The notes: generated from the letters alone by a model not told the origin. Counted from the first letter of the stretch, positions 1 to 64,000 are shown. The stretch is DNA of 64,000 nucleotides from Bilabrum cf. latius (GCA_965178125.1 OZ237744.1:372001-436000), one strand, 5' to 3'. Numbers and translations: made by a program.

Positions 1-2489
1 GGCCGGGCCGACCTAGCTCGGTGCCTGTCGGGCGCAAGGCGACTCGGGCAGCTCGCAAACGCAAGCATGTAGAGCTGGAGCTGCTGGAGGACAGCGATGG
101 CAGCTCGGTCGCACCTATTGATGCTGAAGGCAGGGAAGGCTCGTCGCGGAACGATTCCACGAACCCGTCCTCGGCTGCGATGGCTGCTGCTGCCGCTGGG
201 GCTGGCATGGAGACGGTGCCACCAAGCCCAGTTGCGATGCGGGGGTCGAACGGTGGGGAGACTCGAGGCAGGTCGAGAGGCGACGAGCCGAGCCCCAGTG
301 CAGGCATTGCGTTTCGTTCAGATGGGTCCGGTGCAGCGAGAGTGCGGCGGCCGACGGCCTCTCCGCCAGCCCACCCAACGCAGGTACCTCTGGACTCTGC
401 GGGTTCTCCGATCGGGCATGAGGTAGGAGCCGTCGCTGGCGTCTCGCACGGGTCTGCTGGTGAAGCAAGCGGCAGCAGCGGGGGCGCAGCAGCTGGTTAG
501 GTTAGATCAGCCTTTGCTAGCGGTGGCTCCGGCGAGTACAGTTCGGACGGCGGGGCTGGTGACGACGCCCATGCTCACAAGAAAAGGCGGGTGGGCATGG
601 GCGCTGCTGCGACAGGTTCGGTTGCTTCGATGGATGGCATCCCTTCCAAGATGGTTCTGCGGAGGTTCTAGTCCGCTCCAGGCAGTACGACGCTGGGGAT
701 GCCTGACTGGCAACGCAGCGTTTCAGACCAGGCAGATGGCCCCTCGGTTGCAGCTGGGGGCAGCAGCAACCCCCCTGTAGCTGGCGTGGCACCTCACAGG
801 CAGCGCAGCCGACGCTCCATCGCGTTTGCTGACGAAAAAGAGGCAAGTAGATTCATCGGCACGGCAGATGACAAGCCACAGCACCCTTCGGGCAGTGCAG
901 GGACGATTCCCTCCTCCTAGCCAGCCTAGCAGGCTGCTAGCTCTTCCATGGAGGGGGGCTCTGGTTCTGCCGCCATGGATGGGAGCTCTGCCCGCGGCAT
1001 CTTGAAGAATCGGCTGGAGCAATCGCCACGACTGCCCCCCGTCACGAGCTCGGCATTTTTCGGTGCGAGCAGCGAGCAGGACAGCGAGAGCAAGCTCGAC
1101 GCCTTCCTGCGCACCGGTGCGGTGGCTGAAACAAAGACTCCCTCTGGGCCTGGTGCTGTGGACGGCCATGGGTTCAGTAACAGGGTGCCTCCAAGGACTT
1201 CGATGGCTGGCAGCAGAGTCCCTCAGCATACGGGTGAGTCGGGCACGGCAGGAGCTGCTGCTCCGCGCTTGGCGCACACGGTTGGCAGCAGGGTCGGCGG
1301 TGTCGACAGGTAGCTTGCCGGCTCGGGCACGGAGTCGAGCGGTAGAGTAGCAAGGTCACTGCTGGGCAGCGGCAGCGGGTAGATGGGGCTGGATCTGTCG
1401 TCGAACGTGCTTGGCCGTGGCTCCGGGCCCCTGCTGTACCCTGGGGAGGCTGCAGCTACCGGGGGGAGCGGGCGAGTCTCCAGGCGGGCATCTGCGGATT
1501 CAGGCAGCATGAACGTAGTCACCCCGTCGTCTACGAGTCATTTGAAGCAATCTTCTAGGAAGGGATGGCTGGTGGGCGGCCCGCTTACGACAGTAGAGGC
1601 AGGCGATCCGTTCGGGCCGGACAAGCAGGTCGAGTACTCGTTCTACCCCGGGAGCGGGGACTGCGATTGCCCCGGTGCGAACGTCGTGAACGTGCCTGTG
1701 CCGCCCCTATGGCGCGCAACGAAGACGAAACCGAAGCGTCCCACTGCTTCAATCCCTGCAAAGGTAGGGCGACTTGCTGCCAGACAGGCCATCGAGGACC
1801 GACTGATCCCTGCACTCCGCGCGTTTGGTCCCGATCTCATCCTCATTTCCGCGGGCTTTGATGGGGGTTCACACGATATCGGCAACTCGAGGCCGGACGG
1901 CAAGGCTACCCCGGGCATGGATCTGAAACCCGAGGATTTCGCCCACATCACCAGCCGAATCCTGGATGTGTCTCGGTCGTGCTGCCCTGGTCGGGTCGTA
2001 TCTGTGCTGGAAGGGGGATACGGCAGGTGGAAGTTCAGGGAGCCGAAGGCAGCTGCCACTCGCGTGATCAGGACCAGGAGGGGCGGCAGCGCCAGCAGCG
2101 GCTCAAGCGGCACGAGCGAGGAAGACCCCGGGGCGGTGCATGGCGGTGCAGTGCATGGTGGTGCAGTTTCAGGCAGCGAAGCGAGCGGCGGAGGGTCTTC
2201 CGGGCAGCAGCAAATGGCGACTGATGGCGTAGAGGCAAGGAACATGGCCGATGCAGGCAAAGCGGGGCAGTTTGAAGGCGAATCAACCACCGGCACCGGC
2301 CATGATCGGGGTACTTGTAGTTCCGGTGTTGGGGGCCAACCGGCCTCGAGCGGTTCCGGTGGAGCATCTGCATCGCAGCAAGGCAAGGAGGAGCCCGAGA
2401 GAGAGTTCTACATTAGCAGGGAGAGCCTGGCAGAGAACTGTGTTGCACACATCCGCGTGCTGGCATAGAACCGGGGCACAGGAGAGTGA
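1..2489 (+). CDS. Histone deacetylase (class II-like) domain protein, 5'-partial
   Basis: ORFs 21, 699, 948 and 1383 share one frame and are separated only by TAG (498, 918, 927, 1311, 1380, 2466). First non-TAG stop is TGA 2487-2489. HDAC motifs: FYPGSG, NVVNVP, LIPALRAFGPDLILISAGFDG, GRVVSVLEGGY. Confidence 0.88.
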
Positions 2490-2530
2490 CCAACCCAATG
2501 AAATCTGAAATCTGATTTAGGGTCAAGCAT

Positions 2531-2904
2531 ATACAGAAATACATTGTTGGGTAAAGATTCCGTAAGCACCCAGATGCACCGTCGCCCCCGAGGGGGTTTG
2601 GGTGATCACCTAGATCCAGAGGAGCCCTAAAACAAAGGACTACAAGACCCCCGACCCTTTCAGGCCAAGGGCCCCCCGTTCTCAGCCTATGCCGCCGAGT
2701 ACCCATTCTTCGCCATCAATATGGTCCCCCACAGGCCCCCAGCCTGTTGCCTTCACAAGGAGAAAGCATACAGGTGCGGAGCGTGTGCCCGGCACAAGGC
2801 GCGGTCCAGTCCCACATCGGGGTCCCCGGTCGAGACCCACCATTTCCTCCTCCATGACCGTCTTTGCGTCTCACGATCCTTCAGAGAGGCGAGCATGCAC
2901 GCGC
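2531..2904 (-). mobile_element. Dispersed 374-bp repeat, copy 1 (SINE/non-LTR retroposon-like) with target-site duplication
   Basis: Near-identical reverse complement of 15122-15495. Flanked by direct repeat AAGCAT (2525-2530 and 2905-2910). One end carries a TATTTCTG-type octamer tail on the minus strand. Confidence 0.7.
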
Positions 2905-3003
2905 AAGCATAACCAATGTGCCAGTGGTGTGCAGCCTGTACCAAGAACTGCACTGCACTTCAGCGCGTCCCTTCCAAAAAATGGAGCACTGGATTTTGCC
3001 TTG

Positions 3004-4830
3004 ATGAGCAAAAGGGTCACTCTTGCATTATTTCGAAGTGCTCTGCGATTACTCAATGAATTGAAGAGTAGGCCCTAGGTTCTACATACCGCCACACTGA
3101 AGGCTTTTGGTCCTCCGCTGTCGGGTTCCAGATGGTCGTATGCCACGGCGTTATATGAGGTTCGCAAGCAGTTTCGAACCCAAGACACTTGTTGTGATCC
3201 AATTGACTAGGGTTTTGTCCAGCTTAGGAAGGCCCGCGAGAGCGTTCAATTGCTTCCTGTTGACCTGCAGGCCAGGATCCGACGAGTATCGCAAAGGCCA
3301 ATTGAGGCAAGGCCAGTTGCGTTGCTAGGGCTAGTCGGCGACATAGTCGCAAGCAGGCATAGCGATCTCGATTCGTCATCGTTTGTTGACGATGCCATGG
3401 AAAAGTGTGCGAACTTCTGTGCCTCCCGGGTCCAACAAGTACAGAACGTCGTTGCAGACAAGGTCGATGTGCTGCAGTATTGCCGGAATGAAGCCTTGGT
3501 TCAAGCACAAAAATTCAGACAAAGACAAGTAGCCATGCTTCGATAGATGCCCAAGACAGCTGAGCTTCAGCTAGCGCAGGCGTTCAGCGTGGAAGGGTTC
3601 GAGGTCCCGTCGCGCTCGAGACGGACAGATCGTGATGGCTTGAGCCTGGTGCAGGGGATGCTGGCACCATCAGAACAAGAGTGCAAGATAGTTGAAGAGA
3701 GTTTCTTTGCGTAGCTGCTGCTGCGAGCAGCCGATAACGCTGGCGTCGCTACTAGTAGTACTGAGCCTGAGGTCACAGGACGGGCTGCCGACAAGCCGAA
3801 AATCGAAGTAGGCATAAAGACAGGTGGTAGCCCCTCGTCTTTATCGTCATTAAATTATCAAATGTTGCTCGTGCATGCCCTCCGGAGGGAGACGCTCGGT
3901 CAGCGCGCTTTGGAGCTGTGCCCCACACAGTGCCACATCATGAACGAGCAGCTCATGCAGCAGCTGGGAATCGGTACACATGCTGCAGGGGTAAAGGTTC
4001 AGCGCCAGCACGATAATACCCCGGGAAGTTCGTCTAGTTCGCTGCCCCTGCTAGCCACTTCGAGAGCCACGATAGGGCATCTATCAACGATTGACATTGG
4101 TGCAGCCCTAGGACTCCCACGATCCCGTGCGAGTACCCCGAGGTCTTTGGCCTCGAATGCTCCACACACACCAGATTTAAACGGGTACCGTGGTGCTAAG
4201 ACCACCTCAAACAAATTTTACCAGAATCCACTGCCATCGAGCGCGCTTGTCCACGCTGCAATCGCGCAAGACGCGCTCAGAAGGTTGGGGTTGGTTGCAG
4301 AGATCGGCGTGCCTTCATCTGCCGGGGTCTGCTCCGTATAGCTGCCTATCGAATGGCCTAATGACGGAGGTGCTAGAATTGAATCAAGATAGGACTGGAT
4401 TTGGAATGACTCGAATATCCTCTTGGATTTGTACTCTGCTGGCGCGATCGAGACAGCGGGTTCGCTGGCGCGTCGAATGGTGCTCGCGCCTTAGAGCAAG
4501 GACCCAGCGCTTCTATCTTTTGTCAAACGAGAGACTAGCTGCTCGCGCATCGATCCGTCTGTTCTCTTGTAGCGCTACCTCAGTGCATCGGAGCGGTTGG
4601 TGAAGGAATCTGCCGCTGGCATTCACGGCCAAGCTCACGGATGGGCGAATGACGCAGGTGATGCAAGACCGCAAGCAAACGTGAGCCCTCAGGGCCGTGC
4701 TGCAAGCCATACTGCAGTAGGTCTACATGCTTACGAATCGGCTGACGTTCTGCTGGAGCGCCTGCGGTTAGCAAGGACGCAATGCTCCTCTCTAGCAGTT
4801 TTAGAGGGGCTCGATCGGTCGGTCTCTTAA
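3004..4830 (+). CDS. Hypothetical protein, ~608 aa
   Basis: ORFs 3250, 3862 and 4597 share a frame. Read codon by codon from ATG 3004 the frame has only TAG interruptions (about 8) and ends at TAA 4828-4830. No family recognised confidently. Confidence 0.7.
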
Positions 4831-4958: not shown

Positions 4959-7900
4959 TCACTTTTTCGTTTTCTTGAGCCTCGCCGCGGCTTCCTTCAA
5001 TGCATCGGTCGAGATGGCCGGTTTAGTACTGCCAGACCCACCGCTCCCGTGACCAGGCCCGCCTCGCCCGCGACCAGGCCCACCTCGCCCGCGACCAGGC
5101 CCACCTCGCCCGCGACCAGGCCCGCCTCGCCCGCGACCAGGCCCGCCTCGCCCGCGACCAGGCCCGCCACCCCTGGGAGCGCCTCCAGCTGCCCGACTAG
5201 AGTTCTGCCTGCTGCCTGCATCTGTAGGGCCAGCTTGATGCGCACTTGTCTCAGCCTGCGACTGAGATTGAGCCTGAGCACCATGATCAAGCGACTCTGT
5301 CGTACCTCTCTCCTGCCACTTCTTCAACTCCTGCAACAAATTGGCTCCCCCTGCAGGAACTGCAGGCCGTTTCCATTTCTTGGGCTAGGTTGTACCACCA
5401 GAAGATGCATTCAATTGCTCCTATTCCTTTCGACGCCTTTTCCTCTAGCTTGTCTCGACGAACTTCAGTTTTCTCTTTGTAGACATGTGCATCCCAAGCT
5501 GGCATGATATCCAGAGGAAGAGCTTTGCGGTGACCTGACCATCGACATGCAGCTCAGGCAGGCGGTGTGAGGCAATGACTGCCTGCAACACGGGGTCATG
5601 TCCTTCGCTTGCACTAGCAGCAGCACCCATGTCTGCAGCCCCTCCTACCGCAGCTCCCATCGATTTACCTTCCGTCGATGTCGATGGCCTGCCCATAAGA
5701 CCAACTTGATCCCGCAGAGGGTACCACTCGACGGAGGCAAGAGCACGACGCATTGCCTCACGCGCATCCTCAAGCTATTGCTCGGACAGCTTGCCAAGTC
5801 GCGCTGGAAATGGTCCCATGATCACTTCTCCGCTACAGATATCAATCGGGATGGGGCTTGCGGTCAATCGTGCCAAGCGAGGCTGGGTTTCCCGTGGCAG
5901 CGGTTGCTTCCCGTCCATTCTTGACAAGCTACTAGCAAGAGCTGCTTTGCACCGCATGAAGCTCGCCTCGTCCCGCAAGTGCTTGTCGTCATCGAGTCTG
6001 GTCATGGTCCTGTACTTCAACTTGATCACCATGTCCATTGCAGCCCTGAGGTACGCTCGTATGGCTGTTGCGATCGTGTTCTGGCGCTTCTCTTTGTGAC
6101 TCAATTTGGCACCCTCCTCTGCTGGCTCTGCGATCGGATTCATCGTATCGATCTCTGCAACCATTCCCTCGCATCCGCCTCTAGAACCCAAGCCATGTGA
6201 GTCAAACAGCTCTGCCAGCTGCGACTCAAACTTCGTACGAACTGCAGTACTCATGCAAAGCTTCGTATCAGTTTCGAGCTAGTCGTGCTTCTTCTCGGCA
6301 TTCCATGCTTCCTACAGCTTGTCGGTCTTGGCAGGTTCCTCTTCGTCTCCAGCCTGCTCCTGTAGCCTCCTTGCATCGGCCTTAAGGCGGGACAGTGCGG
6401 CTTTGCGACTGCTCAGCTCATTCTCCAGCACAGTGCGAGAGACCCCATCGATGATCGCATCCGCCTGGTGCTCCAGGCAGCGCCTGGCCAACGCCGAGGA
6501 GCTAGAATCAAGGACCAGCTCACCAGCACCGGTCGCCCTAAGCTAGTAAAAGGGATGACTCGCATGATGCTGCATGTCGGGTCCAGGGAACAGGGTGAGC
6601 TCACCAGCAATTTGCGCCCTTGCTGCACTGATCGCCTCCAATGAGGCTGGCTGGCCGCCGGCCTCGTCATCAGCTCCAGCTCCTGACGCTGGGCCAGCGC
6701 GGGGTTGACCACCGGTACTGCTCCTCTGAAGCTCTTCCAGTCGCGTCGGAACGGGTAGTTCGTTGGATTTCGGGGCGGTTGCCTTCGCCAAGTCCTCTCT
6801 GGACAATCCGAATGCACCGGGATTGCACGGGCAGTCCTCGAGAGCTTCACCCGATCCAGCCGTCCAAAACCCATAGGCAGGCACCAGGTCACTCCATACC
6901 TTAGAATCCAGGCGATTGACAGGCTCAGTACCCCCCTTAGAGTTTCTCGACTTCACTTTGCTTCCTACTTTTGAAACTGATGGAATCAGGCTCTGAAGCG
7001 CATCGCGCACACTGGCAGAGTCTCGTGCACCATCGTCACGAGGCAACCAGCAAGGCAAGTAATGGTCCTCAGGATTATCAACACAGTCTCTGCTTTCGGT
7101 GGGGCGCAGGCAAAGAAGCACCCGGCGAGTCAACCCGCGCGTGTACTCCGGTGCCTGCAGCACATCTAGCATCCTGATGGCAGCATCGACGGCTTCGAAT
7201 GAGATTCGGTGAATCGGGTCTTCGAAACGGCATTCAGTCTCTGCCTGGGATTGGAGGTACTGCGATACCACGGCCTCAGCGGCAACTTTCGGCGTGCACC
7301 TTGTGACGCGGCATTCTTCTCGCACCTTCTCGAATAGGCCCGCGTCTGCTTCGTCGAGGTTGCCAGCAGGCACCGCGTCTTTCTTGCCGTACTGATCCAA
7401 CAATTGGATCATCCTGTTGATCAGCTCCGCCTTTACACTGGAGTCTACTTTGGCGGCAATCCGGCGTGGAGTGCGGCAAGCGACCGCATCTAAGGCCTTG
7501 TACCGTGACAGCATGTCCTTCTCGGCCAATGAACACGGCCCCGAGACCTCCGACGCACGTGCGATTGCATCAGGTAAATTCAAGCCCTGCCTAAGGAAAG
7601 CCATGGTAGCGTGACGCCTCAGCAACAGCTTGGACTCTCGGTCCAGACCAGCCGGCGGGGACCAGGAAGCGATCCACGACAGGTAGTGGTCGTCGAGCTC
7701 GCGCTGCTGCATACAGTGCTGCGCAGCCTGCATAGTGCGCTGCCGGGAGAAGTCTGTTGCTTCGCGTCGCTCCTCGATGTACCTCGTCTCCACAAACTGC
7801 GCCCTCGTCCGGATCCATTCGAGCACGGCGCGAGAGGGCACCTTGCCGGGGCCCTTGGCTATCTCAAACACGTCATGCCGGTCTTTCACGTCCTCGAGTA

Positions 7901-10900
7901 GCGCCTTGAGCGCATCAATTTGCTCATCCACGGTAAGCGGCTGGCTTGATGCTGCCTCTTCGCCAGCTGACAAATCACCGCTGGTCTCGCCGGGGCTGGC
8001 TTCGCCTGGCTTCTTCGAAGAGGGGCGAACAAAGTGCCAGAAGGTATCCCAAGGCTGCAGGAACTCTGAGTCTAGAGGATCGAATTTCGGCATGTTGACT
8101 TGCTCGTTGCGCTCGTACGCTTCAATGAGAAGCTGGGCGAGAACTTCATCCCTCGGCGTGCCGCTAGTCGTCTCCGTTACGATGCGATCGGTCTCCTTGG
8201 CCAGTGCTTCGGCCTTGTTCGGCAACACCCGGTCTTCGGGGCTATAGCTCCAACCCATCTTGTCAGCGAGCTTTCGCGGAACTCGCACAGGTGCCAGCGC
8301 TGGGTCGTCGTCGACGAGTCCAGATGCAGCAGTGGCCTTCGGCTTCTCCGCAAGGGGTTCCTGCATCTGTTCGATCATACCCGTAGCTGCTTGATTGATT
8401 GCTCGAGCTAGCTTTAGTCGATCCTGCCATTTCTGCACAACCTCAGCAAGAGTCATTTGCTTGCTCATTCCCTGTATGCGCCTCAATGCTTCGTTCTCCT
8501 TCGTGAGTCGGGCAATCTCGGCATCTCCCTCGTCCATTGGGGCAGCGCTGCCACCAAAGGCGCTGCCAGTACCACTCGATCGAACAATCTCCATGGCTTC
8601 CTCAGTGGCTTTCTTGAGCTGAGCCTGCTTCGCTGCCTTCAATTCTGCGTCTTCCCTTCTGCTGTCTCGGAGAACTACCAATCGATTCAGTTCAACTTCG
8701 TGGTCCTTCATCACCTTCTCCATGTCCTCCTTTTCCGTGCTGCTGAAGGCCTCTAGCGCTGATCTTTGCCACTACTGCTGATTCTCTTGCTGCAATTCAC
8801 CAAAAGCGGCAGCAGTCCCCGAGAGGAGCCGGGGATCTAAACCCTTTTTCGCTTTCTTCAGCTGCTCCATGACCGTTTCCTTGATTTTCCCAAGGATGCA
8901 CCGGAAGGCCTTCTTGGTGTCCAAGTCCTCCACCCAGTCGTTGAGAACTCGACCAACTTCCTCCTTCGCCGTGCCAAAGGCAGCCTGCGCGCCTTCACCG
9001 GATTCGATCATCTTTTTCACGCTAAGCACGTTCCCAAGCACCCCGACCACCAAAGGTAGAGTCCTCGCGGCGTCAATCATGCCGACTCCGGACTGCAGAC
9101 CTGCGTTAGCAGCGCCACCGCGCTGCATGACCGTCTACACGGCCTCAATCAACTTGGCAGCCAGCATTGCGCACTGCATCTTGGAGTAAAGCGAGACAGT
9201 CGCCGTCACACTGTTTACTGTACTTGAGAGCTCATTTCTGATCGCAACCATGTTCTTGTTGCCACCCTTCGAGAGTAACTTGTCGTATGGTTCTTCCAAA
9301 CGAACACAAAGCTTCTGCAAGGTCTCCTGCAGTTGTTGCAGCCTGGCAGCGGCGTCCTCCAGACCGAGAGAGATGGTCAGCAGCAGTCCTGATTGGGCTA
9401 GGAGGCTGTCCTGTAAAGGATCGTCAATGATTGCTTGCAGCATCCGGAAGAAACCCGTAGTACTAGACCGCGCGTATCTCATGGACTTGTACAGATCCTT
9501 CAATCGTTTGACCAGCTGATCCAGCCCGGATCGGTGCCCAATCCCTATCGCTAGCATTGCCTTTGCCTCTAGCTGAGGGTCGTCGAGCTCCTCCTCAAAG
9601 CTGACTTCATCATTCGCGACCTCGCTGTCGTCGTCAGCAGCCTCATCTGCTGCAGAGGCACCCTGGCCCTAATCCGTGTCAATGGCGTCTTCGTTGCAGG
9701 CACTAGCTGCCCCGGCATAGCTCTGGCCTGAGCCTTTCCCCTAATCTTCGGACGCTGCCGCGCTACTCTGCGATTGTCCGCCATGAGCGCCGACTCTGTC
9801 ACGGTACAACTCGATACTGAATCTCTCCACGTGGTCTGCATCGGTGTGAGGTGGGTTCTCCTCGATAGCGGGCGTGCCACTTGCAGCACTGTCTGGGCCA
9901 TCGGACTGTGGTGGAGCTTCAACCCCAGCTTCAGCGTCATTCCGCAAGTGCTCGGGCAGCTCGTCCGCCTATGTTGTGGCTGCAACTTCTTCTGCATCCG
10001 ACTGAGCGCTTTGAGCCGCCATTTTTTGCTGCAATCTCCAATCCTTGTACGCGTCATAATCAGCCCTGAGCGCACGCCTAAAGTCAGCCAGTGCGAGATC
10101 AGAGGCCCTCTTCGCCTGAGCTACGGCATCAATTCCAGAATGGAGCTTGCGAGATCGTTGCTTGGCTGCCTGTACGAAAGCGTTCAGCATATCTTGCTCC
10201 AGCACAACGGCGGCTCGCAGTCTAGCCGGCATATCTCGAATCTCGGCCATCCCACTGTCCGAGACAGTGAGCTCAAGCTCTTCTAGCAGCCCATTGTACT
10301 CTTCCTAAGCAGCCTGGAGTCCAATCTGCGCAGCCACTGCTACTTGTTTCTAACCTTCGTTCCAGAGATAGTCGGTGAATCCCCTGCTCATCACCGAGTA
10401 CTCGACCGAGCGTGCATCCGGGGCCCGGCCAACTAGGTAGGAGCGATACAGCGGGAAGCTCACGTGACGCAGAGCGTGCCAACGTAACTACTGCGGCGAG
10501 GTAACGACAGGCTACTGACCGACGCACAAAGCACTCTTTTCGCATGCCTCGAAAAGTCGGTCGGCAGCAGGCTTGTCAACCTTAACATGCGCTGTCTGCT
10601 GCACGAGCGTCAACCAACCGGTGACATCGGTGCCAGTCCAGGCATCAGATGGCATCAAAGTACCGAGACCAGGGATCGCTAAGGGTTCGGGTTGTTGCCC
10701 AGAGGGCTATTCCCTCTGTGTTGCAGAGCCACCGGGTATACCGGTGCTGCTACTGCTGCCGGTAGTTGTACTTGGCCCGAACCAGTTGTGCTTCAGCTCA
10801 GTTATCCCCTACTCGATGCGGGACTAAATAGCCACGGTAGCCGTCCTGGCAGTACCCTGATACTCCATCAGGCGGGGAGCTACGAAGCGATCAATCGCAC

Positions 10901-14753: not shown

Positions 14754-15121
14754 AACCGGCTAACCGTACACCAGAAAAATCGAGCTTGTAGCTGCAGCGA
14801 TAAACACGAGCGATACAGCTGGCATACCTCAAATCCACGAGCCAAGTATCTAGTCTATTATTCCGAATCAGCAGCAACAGCCGGTCTATTACACCAAATC
14901 TCTCTGTATCAGGTAGATTTCCTACTAAACACTGCTGAATTCAAGCTGCCTTTCAACCTTCAAGACAATAAATGGCCCTTTCTCCAGTCGTGCATGTGAA
15001 ATATGATATAATGCAGAAACGCACCCTACTATTGCAACATGGTTTGCCCGACTACAGCGACGGATTTTCAAGCCCCACGGCTTGCTAAAGGATATAGATA
15101 GGCAATGGGCCAAAGGCATGA

Positions 15122-15502
15122 GCGCGTGCATGCTCGCCTCTCTAAAGGATCGTGAGACGCAGAGACGGTCATGGAGGAGGAAATGGTGGGTCTCGACCGG
15201 GGACCCCGATGTGGGACAGGACCGCGCCTTGTGCCGGGCACACGCTCCGCACCTGTATGCTTTCTCCTTGTGAAGGCAACAGGCTGGGGGCCTGTGGGGG
15301 ACCACATTGATGGCGAAGAATGGGAACTCGGCGGCATAGGCTGAGAACGGGGGGCCTTTGGCCTGAAAGGGTCGGGGGTCTTGTAGTCCTTTGTTTTAGG
15401 GCTCCTCTGGATCTAGGTGATCACCCAAACCCCCTCGGGGGCGACGGTGCATCTGGGTGCTTACGGAATCTTTACCCAACAATGTATTTCTGTATTTCTG
15501 TA
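15122..15502 (+). mobile_element. Dispersed repeat, copy 2 (may extend 5' to ~15049)
   Basis: 15122-15495 matches 2531-2904 in inverted orientation with few substitutions. Ends in an extra TATTTCTG unit. Candidate TSD TTTGCC at 15043-15048 and 15503-15508. Confidence 0.65.
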
Positions 15503-52500: not shown

Positions 52501-52681
52501 CCAGTGACCGCGCAAAGGCTGTAGATGGGTCAAAATTGCCGAATCCACCTCCTCGAATTGCTGCAGGGGATTCCAACCCTAGCGAAGCTCGCCGCTGCCG
52601 CATGAATCCATCAATTTGCTCCTCTCGAACATTAAGAGAGATTGATGGTGATTCTGCCGGTCTATGTTGATTGTCGCTCAT
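46535..52681 (-). CDS. Cyclic nucleotide-binding domain protein (~2048 aa, two interrupted CNB domains)
   Basis: Ten listed ORFs share one frame joined only by TAG. Motifs QGDIGRAFYLIVRGKAEV, LRAGETFGDLALL, RQATV, IDRDTF and RGDKADGLLMVRQGSL. ATG 52681; TGA 46537-46535. Confidence 0.85.
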
Positions 52682-52859
52682 GTTTGAGGTGGTTTTGTGT
52701 GCCGTACCAGAGTGCCGTTGACCAGCAGTTGCAACCGCTTTGGTGCTGACTTTCAATGATTGGAGTATAACAATAATTCCTAAGACCTGAATGCAAAATC
52801 AACGTAAAAATGTGCATAGGAGCCATTTGTTGCCCAGACGGGTTCCTGCTGGCAATCGG

Positions 52860-55800
52860 ATGAGCTCAGCGTTGACTGCAAGGCTAAGCGGACTGCCAGG
52901 CGACGACGCTGTGGTGCTTGCAAAGGCATCGAGGTCTCGCCCGAAGTCGGCAAGAGCACGTGCTGCCTCAGTAGCAGCACTAGCAGGGAGGGCTATGGCG
53001 TGGGTCAACAAGAAGCAGAAGGGGGGTAAGCGTGGCAAGGTGTAGTCGCAAGCTGAGGCTGTGGTCGCATATGCTACCAGTGGCGATGCCGCGATGGATG
53101 GCGGACCATTTAAGTTGAGACAGCTGCCGCTAGATACCTATGATCGGGAGAACTCCTCGGCTGCGCGATAGTTGCGCACTCCTCCTCCGCCACCAAGGCG
53201 ACCAGAGTCGCCGGACCGACCATACTTGACGGAGCCAGACATTGGTTTCTCCGTCGATTTACTGAAACAATCAGTACAGTATGTCCAGGCTAAATCAATG
53301 CGTTCTCAATCTGTATCAGCCGATCCTAGCCCCGCCATCATGCACCTAGCGCGTGGATTGGAGATCGCCGGTGCGGCAGACAGTCATTCAAAGCAAGATA
53401 GCAAAGACTAGACCGCATCCAAATCCAGCGTGCGACAAGTTTTGGTGTACCAGCGGCAGCTGGTCCTTGCTGCTAGCCGTTTAGATCCACATCTTGCTAC
53501 TGAGCTCGGCGCCGCATTCGTGCGTGAAGCCGAGTATCTGCGCAAGGCGGCAGAGTCTGTGGCTGATCAGGCGCAAATCAACGCCACTAGCCGTCGCAAG
53601 CTTGCATCCAGAACACGACGGACGTCGGCATCGAGCAGCTCGTCGGATGGGTCTGCTGCGGGTGCCTTCAGTCACGGTCATGAGCCCAAGGTCGACCGGT
53701 CGGGAAGATCTACTGGGCACCCCGAGGCTGCCAGTGGCTCTGCACCCTCTGACGCTCTTTCACAAACAACGCCGATGGATCCATAGGCGGCATCTCCGCG
53801 GTAGTCACTGCCGGGAGCAGCAGGGGGGAGAGACACCGGGCCTCGCAGGCTCAGCGCGATGGGCTACCGCGGCATCGTGCTCTCTGGCACGCACTAGATG
53901 GAGGGCGTAGTGAGCCAAGCTGCGCTTCATGCCGACGACGAGAGGAGCCATTCGGGCTCTCGTGCTAGGATCCATGCCGGGTTGAATGATGGTCTGCCAA
54001 TGGAGCACGTGAGGGGACCTGAGCTGGCTGCCTCCTCTGTTCACAGCGATGGAAAGAACGCGGGCCCGATAGACCAAGTCGGCAGCGCGGTCGGTTTGGT
54101 ACCGGGAGAAGGGTGGAGCGGGGGTAGTACCAATCATATTGCCGTACACATTGACGTAGGTTCGGCTTCGCGGGCAGAGCCAGTTCAGTTCGATCAAGAC
54201 AGAGAAGCTGCAATTGCACACGCTGAAAGCCACTCACAGGCCGTTGGGATGAGGGCGGCGAGTCGACCGGGTGTGGCTGCGCGTCCTTCGACAGCTGCCA
54301 CAGCCACAGCGTTAGGTAGCCATGCCTCGTAGCAAGGATAGCACATGGTTCGGTCGACTAACAGGCCAAGGTCGAGGACGTTCGTCACCGTGCAAGGGCC
54401 TGGGAGCAGAACGAATCAAAGTCATTTCCCCATGGGGCAGACAGTCGACCCAAGTGGCAAGCAGCCTTAGCCTAAGGTCGGTCAACGCGCTGGTATTGAG
54501 CTTCAACCCAAGGACGAATCGATTCGCTTTCTGCATGATGCGCCTATGCAGAGCGGACTGTGGGATTAGCAGCTTGCCAAGCGGCAGTTCGTAGATAGAT
54601 CAGATCCAGCATCTCAGGTGTACAGCAGACCGCTCGAACATTCGCCTTTGCGATCTCCTGCTGGAATACGATTTGTTAGCAAGAAGGGGCTTCGTGTACC
54701 GAGTCCGGCGCAGGTTGGTCGTGTTGGTGTCGCGCAGTAGGTGCAACCGGGCGGCTCACAGCACGCAAGACCCCCGCCACCGTCTGCTGCTGCTAAATCT
54801 TCGCGACGGCCTCGTACAGCATCTGTACGACATTCACATCGTCGACTGAAGCACCATGCGACTCATCGCGATCGGGACGTCCTTTCCAACACCCCAGCGT
54901 ACGTGCACCGCGCTACTTCCGTTGGACGGAATGGTGATACCTAGCATGCAGGGCTGAAGCAAGACGACAGACTCATCGTTCGATCGGTCTCTAAGGCAAA
55001 CAGGCAAATACGGGCACAAGAAAACATAGGAGCGAGTTCAGAGCTTGTTCGAGTAGATCAGGGCATACAGTTCAACACATACGGTGGAGGAAACATTGGT
55101 ACTCGGCTACCCGATGGTGCTGTCCAAACTGTATTCCAACGCACCATGACGAGCGTTGAGGCCCAGACGAAAGCTGCACAGCTGGGTGACAAGATTGCTG
55201 TGCAAGAACAGAAGCCAGCCCTCGAAGTGGCTATGTCGTGCACGGTCACGGGCCCTACCGCGCCGGTGGTGCGAGAGCTCAGGCGCCGGATCAGGGCACT
55301 TGAATTCGAGCTGCTTGCGTCGGAGCACGTTGCCGCCACCAGGGTGCAAGGCCTTCGCGCCAGACTAGACAAGGCTAGTGGCTACGAGGGCAAGCAGTCA
55401 TGGTCGCAGCAAGAGAGCGATGAGGTCTTCAAGCGCCTGGATTCTGTGGATGCCGTGCTCCAGGACATGGAAGGGGAGAAGGAGTCGCAGCTTGAGGCCC
55501 TCGACGAAGTGGCTGGAATCCTTCGAGATGTGGACAAGCTCACCTATAAGATGATCAAGACTCACAAAGAGGTGCGCAGCTTTGAGACGCAGACCGACGA
55601 GGCTGTGTTTGAACGGCTGCGACAGGCATAGAAGCTAGCAGATGCCGAGAAACGCAGCTAGATGCGACGAAAAGCGATTGCGGATACACCCTAGCCGCTG
55701 AAACTGCCACAGATGAGAATTGCTAGGTTTTTTAGGGACTACGCAGGACCACCTGTCCTTCTGCGGTACTTCGTCAAGCAGAAAATCGCGAAGGATGCGC

Positions 55801-58800
55801 CGGGTGCCGTAACTGGACTGCAGCTGTCAAGGAGTGCCATGTCGAGGTCAGAGCGGATCCTCCCTCTCCCCAAGCTGCTTGAGCTCATGGATCAGGCCGT
55901 GGAGCTCAAGGCGCACGAAGACGTTAAATCAGACCGGCATGGACTGCCCAGGATACCATACTGGCGTGCGTTTGTGCAGCAGATTTCGAAAGCATTCGGA
56001 TCTGGGTCCCGTGTGATGAACAGGAAGCATCTGGCCAAAGCTATCCTTACCGTCCATCGGTACCGGACCACATGCAGGCTTCCGCAGTTCCGTAGGCGCA
56101 TGTGCTATCTTGGAATGGAGCGAGCTTGCGTGTGTGGCGAGAGTCAGAGAGCGTACGGCGTGTGCGGGTGTGGTTCGTCGGTGCATTCGTGCGAATACAT
56201 GCAATCGCTGGAGCAGGCGCTGCGGCACAGTCTGTCTGCCTCGCACGACAAATACAAAGGCATATTGGGGCTAGAGGTGAAAGGTGCAGCGAACAAGACG
56301 GTAGATATGCTGCGAGATGCCACTGCCAGCATGAGCTCAGAGGCGTATGACAAGCTGGGAGGGAACCAGATTGCCCTGCGGGAGTGGCTTGCACCTGCAC
56401 AGTTACCTGCCATATCTTTGTTTGCCTACGATGCTACTGCTCTTGGGCAGACGGCTTCTCATGCCGCCTTTGAGTACCAGTCGTACGGCCTGCATCTTCG
56501 CGGTCCCGCTGTGGACGACCACCTCATCCGAGATCCCGAGGCAGAGCCGATCGTGCCCAAGCACCTGCAAAAGCAAAGGGCTGCGATTCGATCCGGTGGG
56601 ACCGCGAGCGCATCTGGCAGTAGTAGTGCAGAGGCGGGCGTTCGCTTTAAGGTTGGACTGGTTGGTTCGCCCACTGGCGCCACAGCGAAAGAACCCGGCA
56701 GTGGAAGTGGCAGTGGTAATGCTTCGCCTGCATTATCCGCAAGCCGTGGCGCCGAAGCTAGGCCGAGGCCACCGACGCATAGGCAAAGCATGCACTCTGC
56801 TGCGCTAAGGGCGGCCCATGCGGAGTCAAAAGGTAACATGGCCGCCGTCCGCGAAAGAATCCGCCGCAAAACGATGCATCAGCTTCCAACACAATCGAAT
56901 GCCGAGGAGGGTCCGTCTACAAGCGACAAAGGGAGTGGTACTCCTACGCTGATTCGAGCAGATTCAATGGGGGACGATCTGCTGGGAGGAGGGGACGCGA
57001 TGGAGGTCAACGATGATCTGAGCAACTTGCTTCTTCCTGCAGATAGCGAATCAACTGCAGCCAGCTGTCGGGCACCCGGTAGGGACCCTAAAGATTCGCC
57101 TCGCATGCAAGCTAAGGCAGTGCTTGACTCGGTCGAAGCTGATGACGCTGAATTGCTCGGAATGGTATCTGGCGACTTTGGTGGCCCGAAGGCGTCTCCG
57201 CGGCGGGTCGTCCCGATCAAGCTACCAGATAGCATCGAGCTCACAGCCGACGGTGCACGCAGCTCGCTTTCAAAGAGCCTTACGATGGAGCAAAGGGCAC
57301 TTGCAAGCAAACACAACGTGTCATTTGTGGCAGTGAAAGGCGGGAATACCGGTGTTTCTGCCGTCCCAATGCCCCCCAAGCCGATCCGCAACCGGAGCGC
57401 TCATGCAGGTGGAGATGGGGGTGCATCTCGGGCGGCACGAACCGCAGCTCGGCTCAAGGTATCTGAAGACACGGCAGTGGCTGGACTGTTGTCGGCGTCC
57501 GCAAGCAAACGAAGCGAGTAGAATCCCCGGCGGTCTCCATCTCCGCCTGCTCCTCCCTCTAACACCAAGTCAAGGTTCCCACCTCTCTAGACCGTTGGGG
57601 AAGACGGCAAGCGTTAGGGAAGCGTCCTCGTAAGGAAGACATCGGCCGGTTCGAGGCCGCCTGCACCCCCACGCTCACCAAGGACCCCGAGAGCTCCAAC
57701 CACGCCGCGAAGGCGCCCCAATCTGAACGCCTTGGTTGTTCCCGACGGCGAGGTAGGGGATCCTCTTATTCAGACTCCAGCCATTGGTGATCCATTCTCG
57801 CCAGATTCGTCTAGCCCAGGCAAGCAGTCATCGACCCGCAAGCGTTTTAGTACACATGCATAGCGCCGCAGGTCCTTGGGGCAGTCATCATCGTTTCATG
57901 CCGGAGATGGCGAAGCGCAGGATGCGAAGGACAGCTCGAGCTCTAGCTCTGCCTAGCGTCACGCCATGGGTTTGAAACGAACCGCGACGGCTGAGGCCTA
58001 CAGTAAGGAGGACAGTCAGGGTGCTGCGGGGGCTGGTCACTCAAGTAGAGTCGGCTCTGTTTCGAGAGCTCCATCCAGACGAGCGTCCATCCAGACCAAG
58101 CGGTAGTTGGGCAAGGGCAAAGACCCGAGGGCCTTGAGGGCGGTGCACGCCTCTCAGACAGTTGGTGCTCCCGTCCACTCAAGTGCACTCGCGCAGCTCA
58201 AACGAAGGTATGTTCCCCTGAGCTCTGCGCTGGCTATTGCACGAGCATTCATGAGGCCTTTGTGGAGGTACGAGTGGGATGGTGCAGGAGGATTGATCCC
58301 ACGCGGGCGGCACGCGTCTCGGTCTGGAAGTCGTCGAGGCGGCCGAAGGCAAAGTCATACTTCGTCTGCCGGCGCTTCGTCAGGAGGCGCCTCTGATCCA
58401 CTGGATTTGCCGTTTGGTCCCCATCCTGGCAGTACAAGGAGTCGGCGGTCGATGAAGAGCCAAGACTCGCCCTCGGGGAAGGGCTTTGGTGGCCGGCGAT
58501 CTGCGTTCGATTTTGAAGATGTGGACTTCGATAAGGAGGCTGGCGGCGGCATGTCTCCGAGTCGCAGCAAAGGTACGTCATCTGGGAAGCCGACCTTTGG
58601 CAGTGCCATAGCACAGGCACGAGCGGCAGATAGTGACGAAGAACGAAGCGAAGTTGCAGGCCGACTCCTGCAGCAGGCAGGTCTGCAGCCCATTCCAGGC
58701 TTGCTGGACGAGGGCACGCACCCTGCCTCTACTGATGACTTTGTGGCCGCGGCGAAGGATGACTGGGTCATGATGTACTACGCACTGCTGCGGCACGCGA

Positions 58801-61800
58801 GCTTGTGCAGGCGGAAGGATGGTCTGCAGAGCCTGAGGCTGTCCATGACTGCAAGCAAGCCGGGAGATAGCAGCAGCGCCGGATCCACCTCTGAGATTGT
58901 ACCGGTGGAGGTGGAAGAGGCCCTCGATCGCTTGGCTGCTGAACAGTTTTTGACAGCCCTGACAAAGACTCGCAAAGGCACGATCAAGCAGCTGTTTGAG
59001 GTAGTGGATGTGGACGGCGACGGATACATCGAGGTGAAGGAGTTCCGACTGCTCGTGTCTGCCATTGGGCTCGGTCTCAAGCAGCAGCAGATCGAAAGGG
59101 TTATGCGCAGCCTTGACAAGAACCTCGATGGAAAAGTTTCGTTCGCTGAGTTTGCGGGTGCATTCAGGGAGAGACAGTAGGGCACGATGGTCGTCGATAT
59201 GGAGACTGTAATCGAGTTGGTGATGCAAGCGCACGAGCGCTGCATGCGGCGCGTCGAGTACAGTTGGAGGCAAGTATTCGACGACATCGATGATGGTCCT
59301 CCAAGCCTGGGATCGCGATCTATGTCGCAGGACCAGCTCCTGGAGCTCTTGCACCGAGTGGGTGTCCTGCTAGATCCGGCGCAGGTTGCTTTGCTCTTCA
59401 AGGAGGCCAAGGAGTGGACAGGCATGCCGGAGCATGCGAGCCGAACTAGGGAAGGTTTCAGGTCCAGCAAGAAGAGCAGAAGGTCATCGTCACGAAGCAG
59501 GGGAAGAGCACCCAGCAAGACTGATAGGTCTGGAGCAGGAAACGATCCTACCGACGATGATTTTGGGAGATGGGCAGACGAAGGCAGGGGCAGGTCAAGG
59601 TCTGTAGAACGTGGCAAAGGAGGGTCTCCTCGTACACTGCATTCTAGCAAGAAGTCGTCAGAGGGCAGCAGGCGGAGGAGCTTGCATACCGCTAAGACCT
59701 CCATCAACTTGCGTTCGATCAGAGAGGGGCACGCATCGGCAAGTGCTCGAGTCAGGCGGGGCTCAAGCAGAAACCTCAAGAAGCTTAGCCACGGACGCAA
59801 GAATTTCAACGAGTCAGAGAGTGATAGCGGCTCTGAGGGTGGATTCCGAACCATGGATATCGTGCGCGAGGACTTGCGATCGAGAATACACGTCGTGGCT
59901 GCAATGGCGAAAAGCAAAGCCAAGACTGGTCGCGCGCCGGACGGCTCGCCAAAGACCGATAGCTCGGCTGGCTCTGCCAAACCGCAGCCACCCAAGTCTG
60001 TCGGAGCGACCTCTACTCTCTCCAACGCAATCAGTTTGCAGACCAAGCCAAAGCTAGATGAGAGCGGTGACCCCAGGCCTCTCCACCAGGTACCGAGGGT
60101 GACTTTTCGGCAGATCATTGCTGCGTCTAGGCAGTACAACCTGACGGCGCCGCCCACGCCGCTAGCCTGTCACTATACCCTCTTCAATGCGCACACGAGG
60201 CGACTTGTACGGTACGGAACCGAGAGGGACGCGATCGTGCATCGCGTTCCGAACTTTCAGACCGCCAGAGATGCCACTGACATTGCCGCAGTGGGACTTG
60301 TTCCGATTGCGAAGCTGCTTGAACCCGAGACGGGAACGGGTGCACCCGCAGCTTCCGCCTCTAATGATACCTCGAGTCCCGCCAAGTTGTCGATGAGAAT
60401 CACGCGACCAGGCAGCAGCCTTGGGATAGGGTCTGCAGGAGGCGGGTCCCCTGGTCTCCGCGGTACCATCGCACGGGCAGGATCCCCGGGGCTATCCTTG
60501 TCGAAGGACAAGGCGCTTTTGCAGTCTATGATTCGCGATGGAGGCTCTGTGTCACCCACATCAGCTGGCTAGCGGTCTCGCCGAAGCAGGCTAGCAAGTG
60601 GCGCATCGAACGAAGGCAGCTAGCCAGCACAGGCAGCATCGGTTGCAGAATCAAATGCATCTCGCAGGTCCTCGAGAGCAGGCTCGGCTGCGCAGGGCGA
60701 CACAACCCGTTCCGTCGATTTGAGGGGCCCGTTGTCTCAGAGCGGGGCCCGCATGAGTCGGCCGGTATCAGCGCGTCCTGCATCGGCAACGAGGGGTGGT
60801 ATGGCCGGCAGCCCAATCAGACGACAGAGACCCACGTCTGCCGTGCATCGTCGCGAGAGCTCGCCATCTGTCACTTGGAGTAGGGAGGTGGAGGGTGCTG
60901 CCCGAAATACCAAGACACTGCCTGCCGCAGCGGATCGCATTTCTGTGACCTCAACGGCTGGTGGGAGCCAAGCCGCTGGGAGCATCACTGGCCTTCCTGC
61001 AGATTCGTCCCAACATGCCGGCATGCTTCGAGTGCAGTCAATGCAGGCTGGATCCCCGAAGCGACGGCAGGTGGGCCTTCGATCGGCTTCCAGTCGTGTG
61101 GGGCGAGATTCTCTTCCCCCCAGTAGTAAGCCGCCTCGCGGTGATCTGCTGGCTGGGCTGGTACAGGGCCACGGCTTCGAGCAGCAAGGCCATCGGGAGA
61201 CTGGGGCATCTTCGCCGCTGCGGAGGCCAATGTCGGCACGACCCGCCCATCGCGCGCACTGGCTTCATGGCAGCGGCGCATCGGAGGCGGCGTCAGAAGT
61301 AGCTCGGCGGCAAACGCAGCGGCCAAACGATGCACCCGGTGGATCTGGCAGTGAAAAGGGCAGTGTGGGTGGCTGGACAGCGGATACTCCAAGCACGCGC
61401 GGAGGCAATCGGCCCCGGAGTGCCAGTCCGCGGGGCCGAAAGAGTAGCAAGTCGTCATCCATCGCATCAGAACACATGCTTGAGCTTGACATCGACATCA
61501 GGGTATAGAGAGCGCCAGGGTCAGGGCCAGGGCCAGGGACTGGAACGACAGAAATATCGTTTCTGAGCTCGCGTGATCAGAGGGCCCCGCGAAAACCGAT
61601 GCTGCGGGATCGTGATGCAGCACCAAGAGCTCAAGCAGCAGCGGTGCGCGCCAGATCGCCTGGCCGGGCTGGTGCAAGCCACAGGCTCGACAGGCTGGGG
61701 CTTGGGGAGACGAGCGGCATCGGAGGCTTGATTGGGCGCTCAAAGGAGGCTGCAGGTACACCGAAGCAAGTTGAGCTGCCGGGTGGCAACGCTGCGGGGG

Positions 61801-62108
61801 GTCACAGAGCAGTGGATCAGCCTGTGCTAGAGGATGGGGTAGCTGTCCGGACGCAGTCTGAGGCTCGAGGACAGAGGGAGCAAGCTGAGGTGTAGGAGGC
61901 AGGCGGTGGCAGGGAGCTGTAGGAAGGCGCCGAGCACGCTCTGCGCTCCGCACGGGCCATGGCCTTTGTTGATTGGCAGCGGCGGCTTGCCCACCAAAAG
62001 GAGGTTCGATCGGTTGCTGGGTCAGGAGGGGTGCGCTCGCCCAAACCGCCGGAGCGAAAGATAGAGGATCCCTTAGAGAAGACAAGGCGGATGGCTACGC
62101 CGTACTGA
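52860..62108 (+). CDS. Giant, mostly low-complexity protein (~3082 aa) with coiled coil and EF-hand pair
   Basis: Eleven listed ORFs share a frame, with gaps containing only TAG. EF-hands DVDGDGYIEVKE and DKNLDGKVSFAE (~59007-59150). Stop TGA 62106-62108. Alternative ATG at 52791. Confidence 0.83.
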
Positions 62109-62246
62109 ATTTGAAGCAAATTGAATTTGTTTGTCTTTTGAATTGTGCTGCACATCATGATGCTCGTCACCGCAGACCGTCGCCGTGGCTTGCGCCATGA
62201 TGACGCGTAGCACTCTAGTCGCACGATAGCCAAAACATAGCCAAAA

Positions 62247-64000
62247 ATGCGGATAGCATCGACCCTGATTGCAAGTCTGAGTGCCGTGTGCGCCTTCGCT
62301 GCCTGTGGTAGCAAGCAGAGCGGGTAAGGAGAAGAGCGGGTATCATTATGCTTTCGGATCCATCCAATGTTCATACGCGCCTTGGCGTACCTAAACCAAA
62401 CACCGCGGGATTTTGCAGTCCAACAGACAATCCTATTGCTACCATGTACGGAAATACTACCTTCCCATGGACGTCGAACGTGAGAAATACCTAGCAGTCC
62501 TTTTGTATACACCCCTCCCCACCGTGCAGCCGCACCGAGAAATGTTGGCTCGGTACTCCCTCCCGAATTTGCATTGCAGATGGTCAATTTTTCGTGCGTT
62601 TATAACATCAAGGACTACCAGGACGCCAACGATTAGTCGGATGACAGCGCCATTGCAAAAGCACTCAGCGACGCCTCCAAGAACTCGGGTGGTGGCGTTG
62701 TCTACCTTCCAGCCGGCAAGTACGAAGTATCTGACAACATTATGATGCCATCTAATGTAGTGGTAAGTTTGCATCGAAGTGTTGGCAACGGATACGCGTG
62801 GATTCCTAGCTGTCACAGCTATTGGTTTACGCATCGGCATTGACGGCAGAAACGGCACGTAAGGCTTTCTTTGATCATAACGTTTTGTTATCACCTGATG
62901 CAGATTCGAGGAGAGCCGACTTCAGACCCAGCGAAGCACGGGACCAGTCCTGGCAAGCTGGATCCGAAGGCTACGATCGCTTGCCCAGACAGGAAGCACC
63001 TCGGCTTCTTGAACGCGGATCCCGGGGCCAAGAACATCGGGATCGTAAATCTGAACCTCGATGGGTGTGCCATCATGCTCTGGCCAGGCCTCAAATCGAG
63101 CGCGAAGCCCACACAGCTCAAGGACTACTGGTACGAGGCGACAGACGTGGAAGGCCTCGGCTCCAACAAGGTCGTGCTCGGCAACAAGGTCTCGAACGTG
63201 GTGTTCGGGTATCCCGATCCGGACACGACATCAGGCAACCAATGGCCGTGGCGATTCAGCACCGCCATCGCCGTGTACACGCAGCTCAACTCGCTCGTCG
63301 CCAACAACCTGGTGCCGGAGGCGAGCAGTAGCGCCAAGGTCACCGTCTCGTTCAGCGGCACCGAGTTCAAGAACATCGAGTTCCCGTATGATAACAGGTA
63401 CGGCATTGATGCCGGAAGACGTGAGGGGAGACGGAGTTGCTGACCTGTCGAATTGATTCGCGCGGCCCGAAGGATACTCCGCTTGCTCGAGTCACGGTCG
63501 CTGCCTGCTGCCAACCGGCTCTCCTTTCTACCTCGCCATCATGTATTTTCCGGCGCAGTGCTGCTCGGTGGGGCCATCGGCCACTACGAGGTGAGCCATG
63601 TATGGAGGATAGCCTCCACGGTCCAATCAGTCTCTGCAATAGGCTGATTGCATGGGCCCTCGTAGCGAGCAACTGCCAGTGTGATTGTTCCCATCACTAT
63701 GCATCATTTTGAATTGTTCTCACCCTTCGCTCCGCATTTATTCCGTTGCTGATCCTGCAGGGCACCAAGTGCAAAAAGGTCTCCTCGAACGCGAACCTGA
63801 CGCCTGACTGCGCCAAGTGGTTCTTCCCCATCGGCGTGTCTGTCCGCGACAACTTCGTGTACATGAATGGGCGCGTGGGCATCCAGTGGGCGGGCGGCTG
63901 CGCCTCAAAGTTGGAGGGTGGAGAGCAGCCCGGCTGCGGTACGCAGGTCTACAACAACCACGTCGAAGTAAAGAAGGACAGCATGTGCTACTCTGTTGAC
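62247..64000 (+). CDS. Secreted pectate lyase-like/GH28-related beta-helix protein, 3'-partial, multi-exon
   Basis: Signal-like MRIASTLIASLSAVCAFAAC. YNIKDY..DDSAIAKAL..GGGVVYLPAGKY..NVV|IRGE is a typical N-terminal motif. Introns 62324-62418, 62480-62579, 62763-62903, 63421-63558 and 63591-63760. One TAG at 62634. Confidence 0.75.

Follow-up and report, generated by a model that had tools for sequence, protein, structure and literature searches.

UAG as a probable glutamine codon in the DNA of a GC-rich, apparently flagellated eukaryote

In nearly all genes of the 64,000-nucleotide stretch OZ237744.1:372001-436000 (assembly GCA_965178125.1), which we call the window and number from its first letter, TAG stands in frame; it is unchanged in contigs of spliced mRNA and exchanges with CAG or glutamine (Q) among close relatives. 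As judged by comparison of sequences, UAG is very probably a sense codon here, most likely for glutamine. The window is most likely nuclear DNA of an intron-poor, flagellated eukaryote of roughly 59% GC in which UAG has been lost as a stop codon. The code would then be NCBI table 15, which is already known, and the lineage is probably new for it.

Reading frames and genes of the window

The GC content is 56 to 63% throughout the window. With the standard code, frames between stops in the 64 kb reach at most 742 codons. Reading TAG as sense yields frames of 3289, 3105, 2526, 2087, and 1150 codons, with 31, 27, 20, 17, and 7 in-frame TAG codons, respectively. As controls, the two other stop codons were read through in the same way. 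TAA read-through changed almost nothing and left the top frame at 742 codons, while TGA read-through made many mid-size frames longer in all six frames but none longer than 742 codons. The sum of frames of at least 300 amino acids was in fact larger with TGA as sense (31,552) than with TAG as sense (25,414). TGA is more frequent than either of the other stop triplets, with 848 copies on one strand and 862 on the other, and reading it through therefore lengthens many random frames. For statistical comparison, we made 100 dinucleotide-preserving shuffles, in which the longest TAG-sense frame averaged 403 codons and reached 792 codons at most, against the 3289 observed. Translation of the 2087-codon frame with table 15 gave no stop. 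Frames of 2,000 to 3,300 codons without TAA, TGA, or a frameshift far exceed what the shuffles produce, which rules out pseudogene decay, as the original prediction from the sequence alone had argued.

A greedy set of 26 nonoverlapping frames, some of them doubtful (e.g., the antisense ones), holds 164 in-frame TAG codons and ends with TGA in 20 cases and with TAA in 6. Thirteen genes were delimited with confidence. They comprise 16,309 codons, of which 126 are in-frame TAG, in keeping with the more than 100 cases counted earlier by manual reading. This corresponds to 7.7 TAG per 1,000 codons and, if TAG is glutamine, to 15.9% of the glutamine codons. The absence of TAA and TGA inside these genes follows from the definition of the frames, which are bounded by TAA or TGA; together, the two off-frames of the same genes contain 117 TAA and 644 TGA. 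The conserved genes are in general poor in TAG (zero or one each) compared to the giant lineage-specific genes, with about 8 to 9 per 1,000 codons.

Pfam matches bear out the identities that had been proposed for the HDAC, actin-related, IQUB, MCU, cyclin, and helicase genes. The 3′ part of a gene with a histone deacetylase (HDAC) domain (positions 3 to 2489, plus strand; Hist_deacetyl, E = 2.4e-16) has a frame that is open at the window start, holds seven TAG codons, and ends with TGA. On the minus strand, the last exon of a gene for an ARP4/BAF53-like actin-related protein (15607 to 17147; Actin, E = 1.9e-74; human ACTL6A/BAF53, E = 8e-48) has TAG at codons 44, 133, 204, and 506 of its frame and ends with TAA. 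Another exon of this gene lies upstream (17249 to 17539), the introns being at 17148 to 17248 and 17540 to 17625. A gene for an IQUB-like ciliary protein (17695 to 19434, plus strand; IQUB, E = 9.2e-52) has a single TAG at 18238 to 18240. The main exon of a mitochondrial calcium uniporter (MCU) gene (19928 to 21114, plus strand; MCU, E = 2e-25; intron at 19839 to 19927) also has a single one, at 20290 to 20292; its product matches solved MCU chains (E = 1.4e-10), the WDIMEP pore stretch included. One TAG (23253 to 23255) is likewise found in the last exon of an A/B-type cyclin gene (23052 to 23730, minus strand; Cyclin_N and Cyclin_C; E = 1.9e-30 to cyclin A2), whose exons continue upstream across introns at 23731 to 23864, 24005 to 24137, and 24543 to 24667. 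These three genes end with TGA. So does the gene for a UvrD/Srs2-type helicase with long inserts (30166 to 33618, plus strand; UvrD-helicase, E = 8.5e-58, and UvrD_C), which carries seven TAG codons (codons 113, 142, 214, 450, 543, 611, and 912).

The proposal that TAG falls inside folded domains holds for some of these genes. Three of the four ARP4 sites lie within well-aligned actin-fold blocks, three helicase sites are inside the match to the UvrD N-terminal domain, and the cyclin site is within Cyclin_C. In the IQUB and HDAC genes, on the other hand, the TAG codons are outside the Pfam-matched parts. The MCU codon is located just ahead of the MCU match, outside the part aligned to solved structures, and is therefore uninformative on the residue.

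The largest of the remaining genes is a giant lineage-specific gene of 3,289 codons (4959 to 14828, minus strand; 31 TAG, ending with TGA). A 21-nucleotide repeat present in 6.5 copies at 5032 to 5168 corresponds to the C-terminal tail of its protein, which is of the RGG type (GRGRGGP). Frames without a known family are a 754-codon frame at 2566 to 4830 (plus strand; 9 TAG, ending with TAA) and a 2,526-codon frame at 37320 to 44900 (plus strand; 20 TAG, ending with TGA), the latter with hydrophobic stretches by eye. The 2,087-codon frame (46535 to 52798, minus strand; 17 TAG) has cyclic-nucleotide-binding domain matches, and the 3,105-codon frame (52791 to 62108, plus strand; 27 TAG) has an EF-hand pair; both end with TGA. 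A BTB-domain protein gene (25029 to 26534, plus strand; BTB_2; intron at 24939 to 25028) has one TAG (25098 to 25100) and ends with TGA. Finally, the main exon of a gene for a CobW/ZNG1-type GTPase (21619 to 22700, plus strand; cobW and CobW_C; intron at 21516 to 21618) ends with TGA and has no TAG. This exon fits the earlier statement that all genes but one contain TAG, although a doubtful frame at 45063 to 45866 is also without it.

TAG in transcript contigs and in contigs of other studies

At least part of a test stretch was present in 17 listed runs (11 studies), and at least half of its words were present in 8. We compared the contigs of four runs from four studies (X1, X5, X7, and X8) with the window over positions 14801 to 28000, which include nine in-frame TAG codons. 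No run is on record as RNA, and X5 and X7 were treated as transcript assemblies on the basis of their splice joints. Their contigs skip segments of 86 to 134 nucleotides that are bounded by GT..AG in plus-strand genes and by CT..AC in minus-strand genes, and they therefore represent spliced transcripts. The joints are 17147/17249 and 17539/17626 (ARP4; spliced contigs of X5 and X7), 19838/19928 (MCU; a GT..AG joint in X5), 21515/21619 (CobW; in X5 and X7), 23730/23865, 24004/24138, and 24542/24668 (cyclin; in X5), 24938/25029 (BTB; in X5 and X7), and 27723/27854.

The X5 contigs cover seven of the nine TAG codons and the X7 contigs cover five, and the listed pieces match the window with no other letters. 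The spliced contigs thus keep TAG, and the CAG in mRNA that the original prediction had named as the mark of editing is absent at these sites. The TAG of the IQUB gene is present in both sets. DNA-like contigs cover eight (X1) and three (X8, which is without cover of 16561 to 18320) of the nine codons, and all nine positions are free of listed variants. Editing and assembly error are excluded at the TAG sites covered by transcripts, partial editing aside. A C-to-T assembly artifact is ruled out because the contigs of four studies and separate metagenome contigs, described next, repeat the pattern.

A metagenome scan with the giant protein gave no relative. With an alignment of helicase fragments, three loci were found (L001 to L003), of which L001 is identical to part of L002. 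L002 (55% GC) carries orthologs of the cyclin, BTB, and helicase genes in the window's order, with identities of 84.6% over 227 amino acids for the cyclin, 379/514 (74%) for BTB, and about 50% for the helicase. Its helicase frame spans 940 codons with 10 TAG, compared to 284 codons when TAG is read as a stop; the BTB frame spans 530 codons, also with 10 TAG. The TAG of the window's BTB gene is shared by position with the L002 ortholog. L003 (1 to 7976) is a bacterial contig unrelated to the eukaryote, with genes including UvrD, LUD-domain, SLT transglycosylase, nucleotidyl transferase, class IV aminotransferase, and FGGY kinase genes; because TAG terminates genes in the usual way in this contig, it served as a control. 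As the lineage of L001 and L002 adds to the window and to the relatives of 83 to 96% identity considered below, at least three diverged lineages appear to use TAG as sense, which is a clade and not a single strain.

The amino acid opposite TAG

The genes of the close relatives appear as fragments (P0001 and P0005 to P0009) because they were called under the standard code. In P0001 (ARP4; 96% identical), Q stands opposite TAG codons 133 and 204 of the window, and the fragment stops immediately before TAG codon 506. For the giant gene, TAG codon 2019 is matched by Q in P0005 (91%), which ends at window CAG codon 2258, and P0006 (91%) ends at window CAG codon 352. In the helicase fragment P0007 (83%), window TAG codons 450, 543, and 611 correspond to L, Q, and K, respectively, and the call stops at CAG codon 1040 of the window, a position at which P0008 carries Q. 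Within this close range (83 to 96% identity), Q is therefore opposite four of six window TAG codons and E is opposite none, and the gene calls of three relatives (P0005, P0006, and P0007) stop at a window CAG, one transition away from TAG.

At greater distances, codon 214 of the helicase is the sole well-conserved column that contains a TAG. Among 148 UvrD homologs, this column has Q in 81 and E in 47, and it is Q (CAA) in P0009 and L002. To the BTB, cyclin, and helicase orthologs of L001 and L002 we applied a threshold of at least 5 of 12 flanking identities and counted the partners of TAG in either direction. The partners were Q in five cases; K, E, R, and A in two each; and M, G, T, and S in one each. 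Pooled over 23 sites, they were Q in nine cases; K in three; E, R, and A in two each; and M, G, T, S, and L in one each. A BLOSUM62 likelihood over the 23 sites placed Q first, ahead of K, R, E, and S by 9.4, 9.7, 11.1, and 16.3 natural-log units, respectively, with L outside the eight best candidates listed. Using a substitution table derived from the same alignments and 17 mid-distance sites, Q was again first, and K was 8.9 units behind. TAG sites thus correspond to glutamine in homologs, despite the 14 of 23 pooled partners that are not Q.

Termination codons

The 13 confident genes end with TGA 11 times and with TAA twice, so that TGA is strongly preferred. The TAA of ARP4 adjoins the end of the ACTL6A alignment, i.e., a conserved C terminus. 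The window cyclin and its L002 ortholog both terminate with TGA at the same residue, and the BTB ortholog of L002 ends with TAA. Because TAA and TGA end genes at conserved C termini, only UAG appears to be reassigned, in agreement with the claim that TAG, and TAG alone, is sense here. No use of UAA as sense (table 6) was seen, with 0 in-frame TAA in the 16,309 codons of TAA/TGA-bounded frames. No gene of the window needs TAG as a stop, but its frames were bounded by TAA and TGA.

Affinities of the organism

An Rfam search of the window at gathering thresholds gave no match, rRNA included. Among 120 listed hits to the CobW protein, the best named match was Cafeteria roenbergensis, which is 59% identical across 91% of the query; the full-length named eukaryotes that follow have 46 to 50%. 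A maximum-likelihood tree was made of 34 rows from the 120 hits, comprising all clearly named ones and a sample of the unnamed ones, and its rows include no other stramenopile, no fungus, and no aphelid. In this tree, Cafeteria is sister (92/73) to the window together with its 95% relative, within a starred four-row clade (98/93). Protein-atlas comparisons for IQUB and MCU yielded no useful taxon, and among the clusters of P0003, P0004, P0007 to P0009, P0159, and P0160, the only label was an MMETSP one on P0159, which falls among haptophyte-like rows in the tree. The grouping is a lead only, because it comes from one gene in a tree without other stramenopile, fungal, or aphelid rows, and it makes the organism tentatively a bicosoecid-like stramenopile, as a lead and not as a placement. 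IQUB suggests that the cell is flagellated, and MCU suggests a conventional mitochondrion. Judging by gene content, GC content, and TAA use, the organism is not a ciliate, a fornicate, or an aphelid.

Runs X1 to X8, which come from several studies and stand under four different organism codes, contain 67 to 100% of the sampled words, two of them with spliced transcripts. Among the runs that contain parts of the stretch are entries labeled "algae metagenome" or "protist metagenome." Apparently, the flagellate is present in material under other names, whether as a co-culture, as a contaminant, or under different strain labels.

Other features of the window

A Pfam COR-A match (E = 1.1e-10) is located just upstream of the MCU domain (19843 to 21114), an unusual pairing, and the first TGA of the MCU gene is immediately followed by a second in-frame TGA. 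The CobW/ZNG1-like GTPase has a long His-rich insert (HGHSHG runs) between its two domains (21564 to 22700).

A gene for a Cys-rich secreted-type protein is present in two copies. Copy 1 (26746 to 27723, plus strand; weak SRCR match; intron at 27724 to 27853) has one TAG at 27190 to 27192, and this codon is common to copy 2 (35418 to 36329, plus strand), which has two in-frame TAG codons. Copy 2 lies within a segmental duplication (25455 to 28183 and 34255 to 37290) that consists of several blocks with 92 to 98% identity and includes a BTB gene fragment as well as the second Cys-rich (weak SRCR) gene copy. Over 26921 to 27912, a variant contig of X1 bears copy-2-like letters. Between the two copies, a 621-codon frame (28052 to 29917, plus strand; five TAG) with 11 residues repeated in tandem and a hydrophobic stretch at the C terminus is less certain as a gene. 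A near-perfect tandem repeat of 33 nucleotides (17.1 copies, 99% match) lies in frame within it at 28138 to 28700.

Between the giant gene and ARP4 (14801 to 15680), contig depth is very high for each of the four runs (744 to 2629 in X1, compared to about 14 in the neighborhood), and short contigs, variants, and loose ends are numerous. This interval probably represents a multicopy repeat or a mobile element.

Discussion

How UAG might have become a glutamine codon can be proposed by analogy. A tRNA-Gln whose anticodon has changed from CUG to CUA, a single change, would decode UAG but not UAA. In addition, eRF1 would have lost the recognition of UAG and kept that of UAA and UGA, leaving UGA (preferred) and UAA as terminators. 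We infer this pair of changes because the known UAG-to-Gln lineages work in this way, and a passage of PMC11687900 states that a CUA anticodon reads UAG but not UAA.

Several points weigh against UAG as a glutamine codon. With regard to the mechanism, tRNA scans of the window and of L001 to L003 gave no tRNA gene, and eRF1 is not in the window. With regard to the transcripts, two of the nine TAG codons (ARP4 codon 506 and that of the cyclin) have no listed RNA piece, and partial editing may still occur, since contigs hide rare variants. With regard to glutamine, the stop codons that relatives would have at the three CAG sites are deduced from the ends of gene calls only.

One alternative, which we consider unlikely, is that the organism belongs to a lineage whose code has already been described, for example, that of the aphelid Amoeboaphelidium of algal cultures. 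The spread of the sequence over runs with several organism codes, and over "algae" and "protist metagenome" entries, would fit a parasite or contaminant of algal cultures. Amoeboaphelidium does read stop codons as glutamine, but passages of PMC5304391 and PMC6299283 describe this for both TAA and TAG, and its genomes have 40.5% and 39.9% GC according to Table 1 of PMC10608142. We rejected this candidate on the 56 to 63% GC and the TAA stop of the window and on the CobW tree, where the window groups with Cafeteria. Iotanema, the ciliates, and the rhizarian exLh do not fit either, given the MCU gene, the GC-rich composition, and the partners that point to glutamine. In the literature covered, which is incomplete and does not extend to the supplementary taxon lists of PMC11687900 and PMC5304391, no stramenopile or bicosoecid with a reassigned nuclear UAG turned up, and the passages on the genetic code that relate to stramenopiles concern mitochondria, Streblomastix, or Blastocystis.

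A second alternative, to which we give slightly less weight and which is compatible with a UAG that encodes glutamine, is that UAG has a dual, context-dependent meaning, being sense inside genes and a terminator near some 3′ ends. The stop codons of Condylostoma have such a context-dependent meaning, and UAA is reported to be context dependent in Blastocrithidia nonstop. In the HDAC gene, a TAG stands only 7 codons ahead of the TGA stop. Genes that end with TAG would also go undetected in TAA/TGA-bounded frames of a single window, and one window is in our judgment insufficient to establish that UAG never terminates. However, of the 12 confident genes that contain TAG, the remaining 11 have their last TAG 40 to 478 codons upstream of the stop, and the conserved C termini end with TGA or TAA. 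Furthermore, L002 has a TAG 11 codons ahead of its BTB stop, and since the sequence that follows is conserved with the window, this TAG is read through.

It is less probable still that UAG is sense but stands for lysine, arginine, or glutamic acid instead of glutamine. UAR encodes glutamic acid in some ciliates and in Blastocrithidia. The 14 non-Q partners among the 23 pooled sites include three K, two R, and two E, with L and K occurring even in the relative of 83% identity. In L002, helicase codons 113 and 142, both TAG in the window, are matched by GAG (Glu), and E is the second commonest residue (47/148) in the conserved UvrD column. TAG sites face D, K, R, and E in human ARP4 and cyclin A2; the cyclin position is variable, being occupied by E in the human protein and by A in L002. 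The two Cys-rich copies (27172/35757) have CCG (Pro) against TAG, two substitutions apart. The non-Q partners are mostly at variable positions, but they leave lysine, arginine, and glutamic acid formally possible. Against these residues stand the close-range partners (Q at four of six sites, E at none), the three gene calls that stop at a window CAG, and the pooled likelihood, which is 9.4 to 11.1 natural-log units worse for K, R, and E. In addition, ordinary codons for E and R are 81% conserved in these alignments (62% for Q), yet E and R are each opposite TAG at only 2 of 17 sites.

That there is no code change at all, the TAG codons being C-to-T artifacts, sites edited to CAG, or remnants in decaying pseudogenes, is hardly credible: no support for it was found, although the RNA evidence consists of contigs and reaches seven of nine sites at best, whereas contigs of four runs (X5 and X7 spliced) carry TAG with no other letters in the listed pieces, separate metagenome contigs have the same signature, and the 2,000- to 3,300-codon frames are far beyond the shuffles.

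The reading of UAG as a glutamine codon places the window next to a small number of known systems. Passages of PMC11687900 list Iotanema spirale, Protocruzia tuzeti, and two lineages of phyllopharyngean ciliates with UAG as glutamine and UAA and UGA as stops. As in these table 15 lineages, only UAG is reassigned in the window, most likely to glutamine, and UAA and UGA terminate; unlike them, the window is GC rich (56 to 63%), has MCU and ciliary genes, and has Cafeteria as its nearest named relative (by one gene). Both UAA and UAG are glutamine (table 6) in many ciliates, Hexamitinae, Streblomastix, some ulvophytes, and Amoeboaphelidium protococcarum, according to passages of PMC5304391, PMC6299283, and PMC11687900. 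These codes share with the window the capture of a stop codon for glutamine, presumably via a mutated tRNA-Gln anticodon, but UAA is not reassigned in the window, where 2 of 13 genes, including ARP4, end with TAA. Other nuclear codes that change UAG only are described in PMC11687900 for the rhizarian exLh (leucine) and for Scotinosphaera (serine). There, too, UAG is uncoupled from UAA, but leucine and serine fit the window poorly (one L and one S among 23 partners). Cafeteria roenbergensis/burkhardae (Bicosoecida) resembles the window in being a heterotrophic flagellate with a GC-rich genome. Passages of a preprint (bioRxiv 10.1101/751586) give about 70% GC and nuclear genes annotated with the standard code, the only departure being UGA as tryptophan in the mitochondrion. 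The window differs in its sense TAG, and a long tree path (1.15) separates the two.

The original prediction had suggested that the organism may be an independent case of UAG reassignment. This is plausible but only partly substantiated: gene content, GC content, and TAA use speak against a ciliate, a fornicate, or an aphelid, and Cafeteria is the nearest named relative by one gene. We see an even chance that it represents the first nuclear stop codon reassignment in stramenopiles, with an independent origin of UAG as glutamine in a GC-rich, free-living, bicosoecid-like clade of at least three diverged lineages.

Standard-code gene callers already fragment the genes of this organism and its relatives (P0001 and P0005 to P0009), and the annotation, contamination screening, and phylogenomics of such assemblies need table 15. 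Because the sequence occurs in runs of at least four organism codes, unrecognized transcripts of the flagellate may sit in the data of other organisms.

Departures from the standard code are rare in nuclear genomes, and the uncoupling of UAG from UAA is rarer still. A further, apparently independent case in a GC-rich organism that is not a ciliate would provide another data point on the capture of one stop codon without its partner codon, and it would test the need for composition bias. If the stramenopile reading is true, UAG-only reassignment arose here under a GC-rich and not an AT-rich composition. As the organisms evidently grow in laboratory cultures, the uncoupling of UAG from UAA would then be open to experiment.

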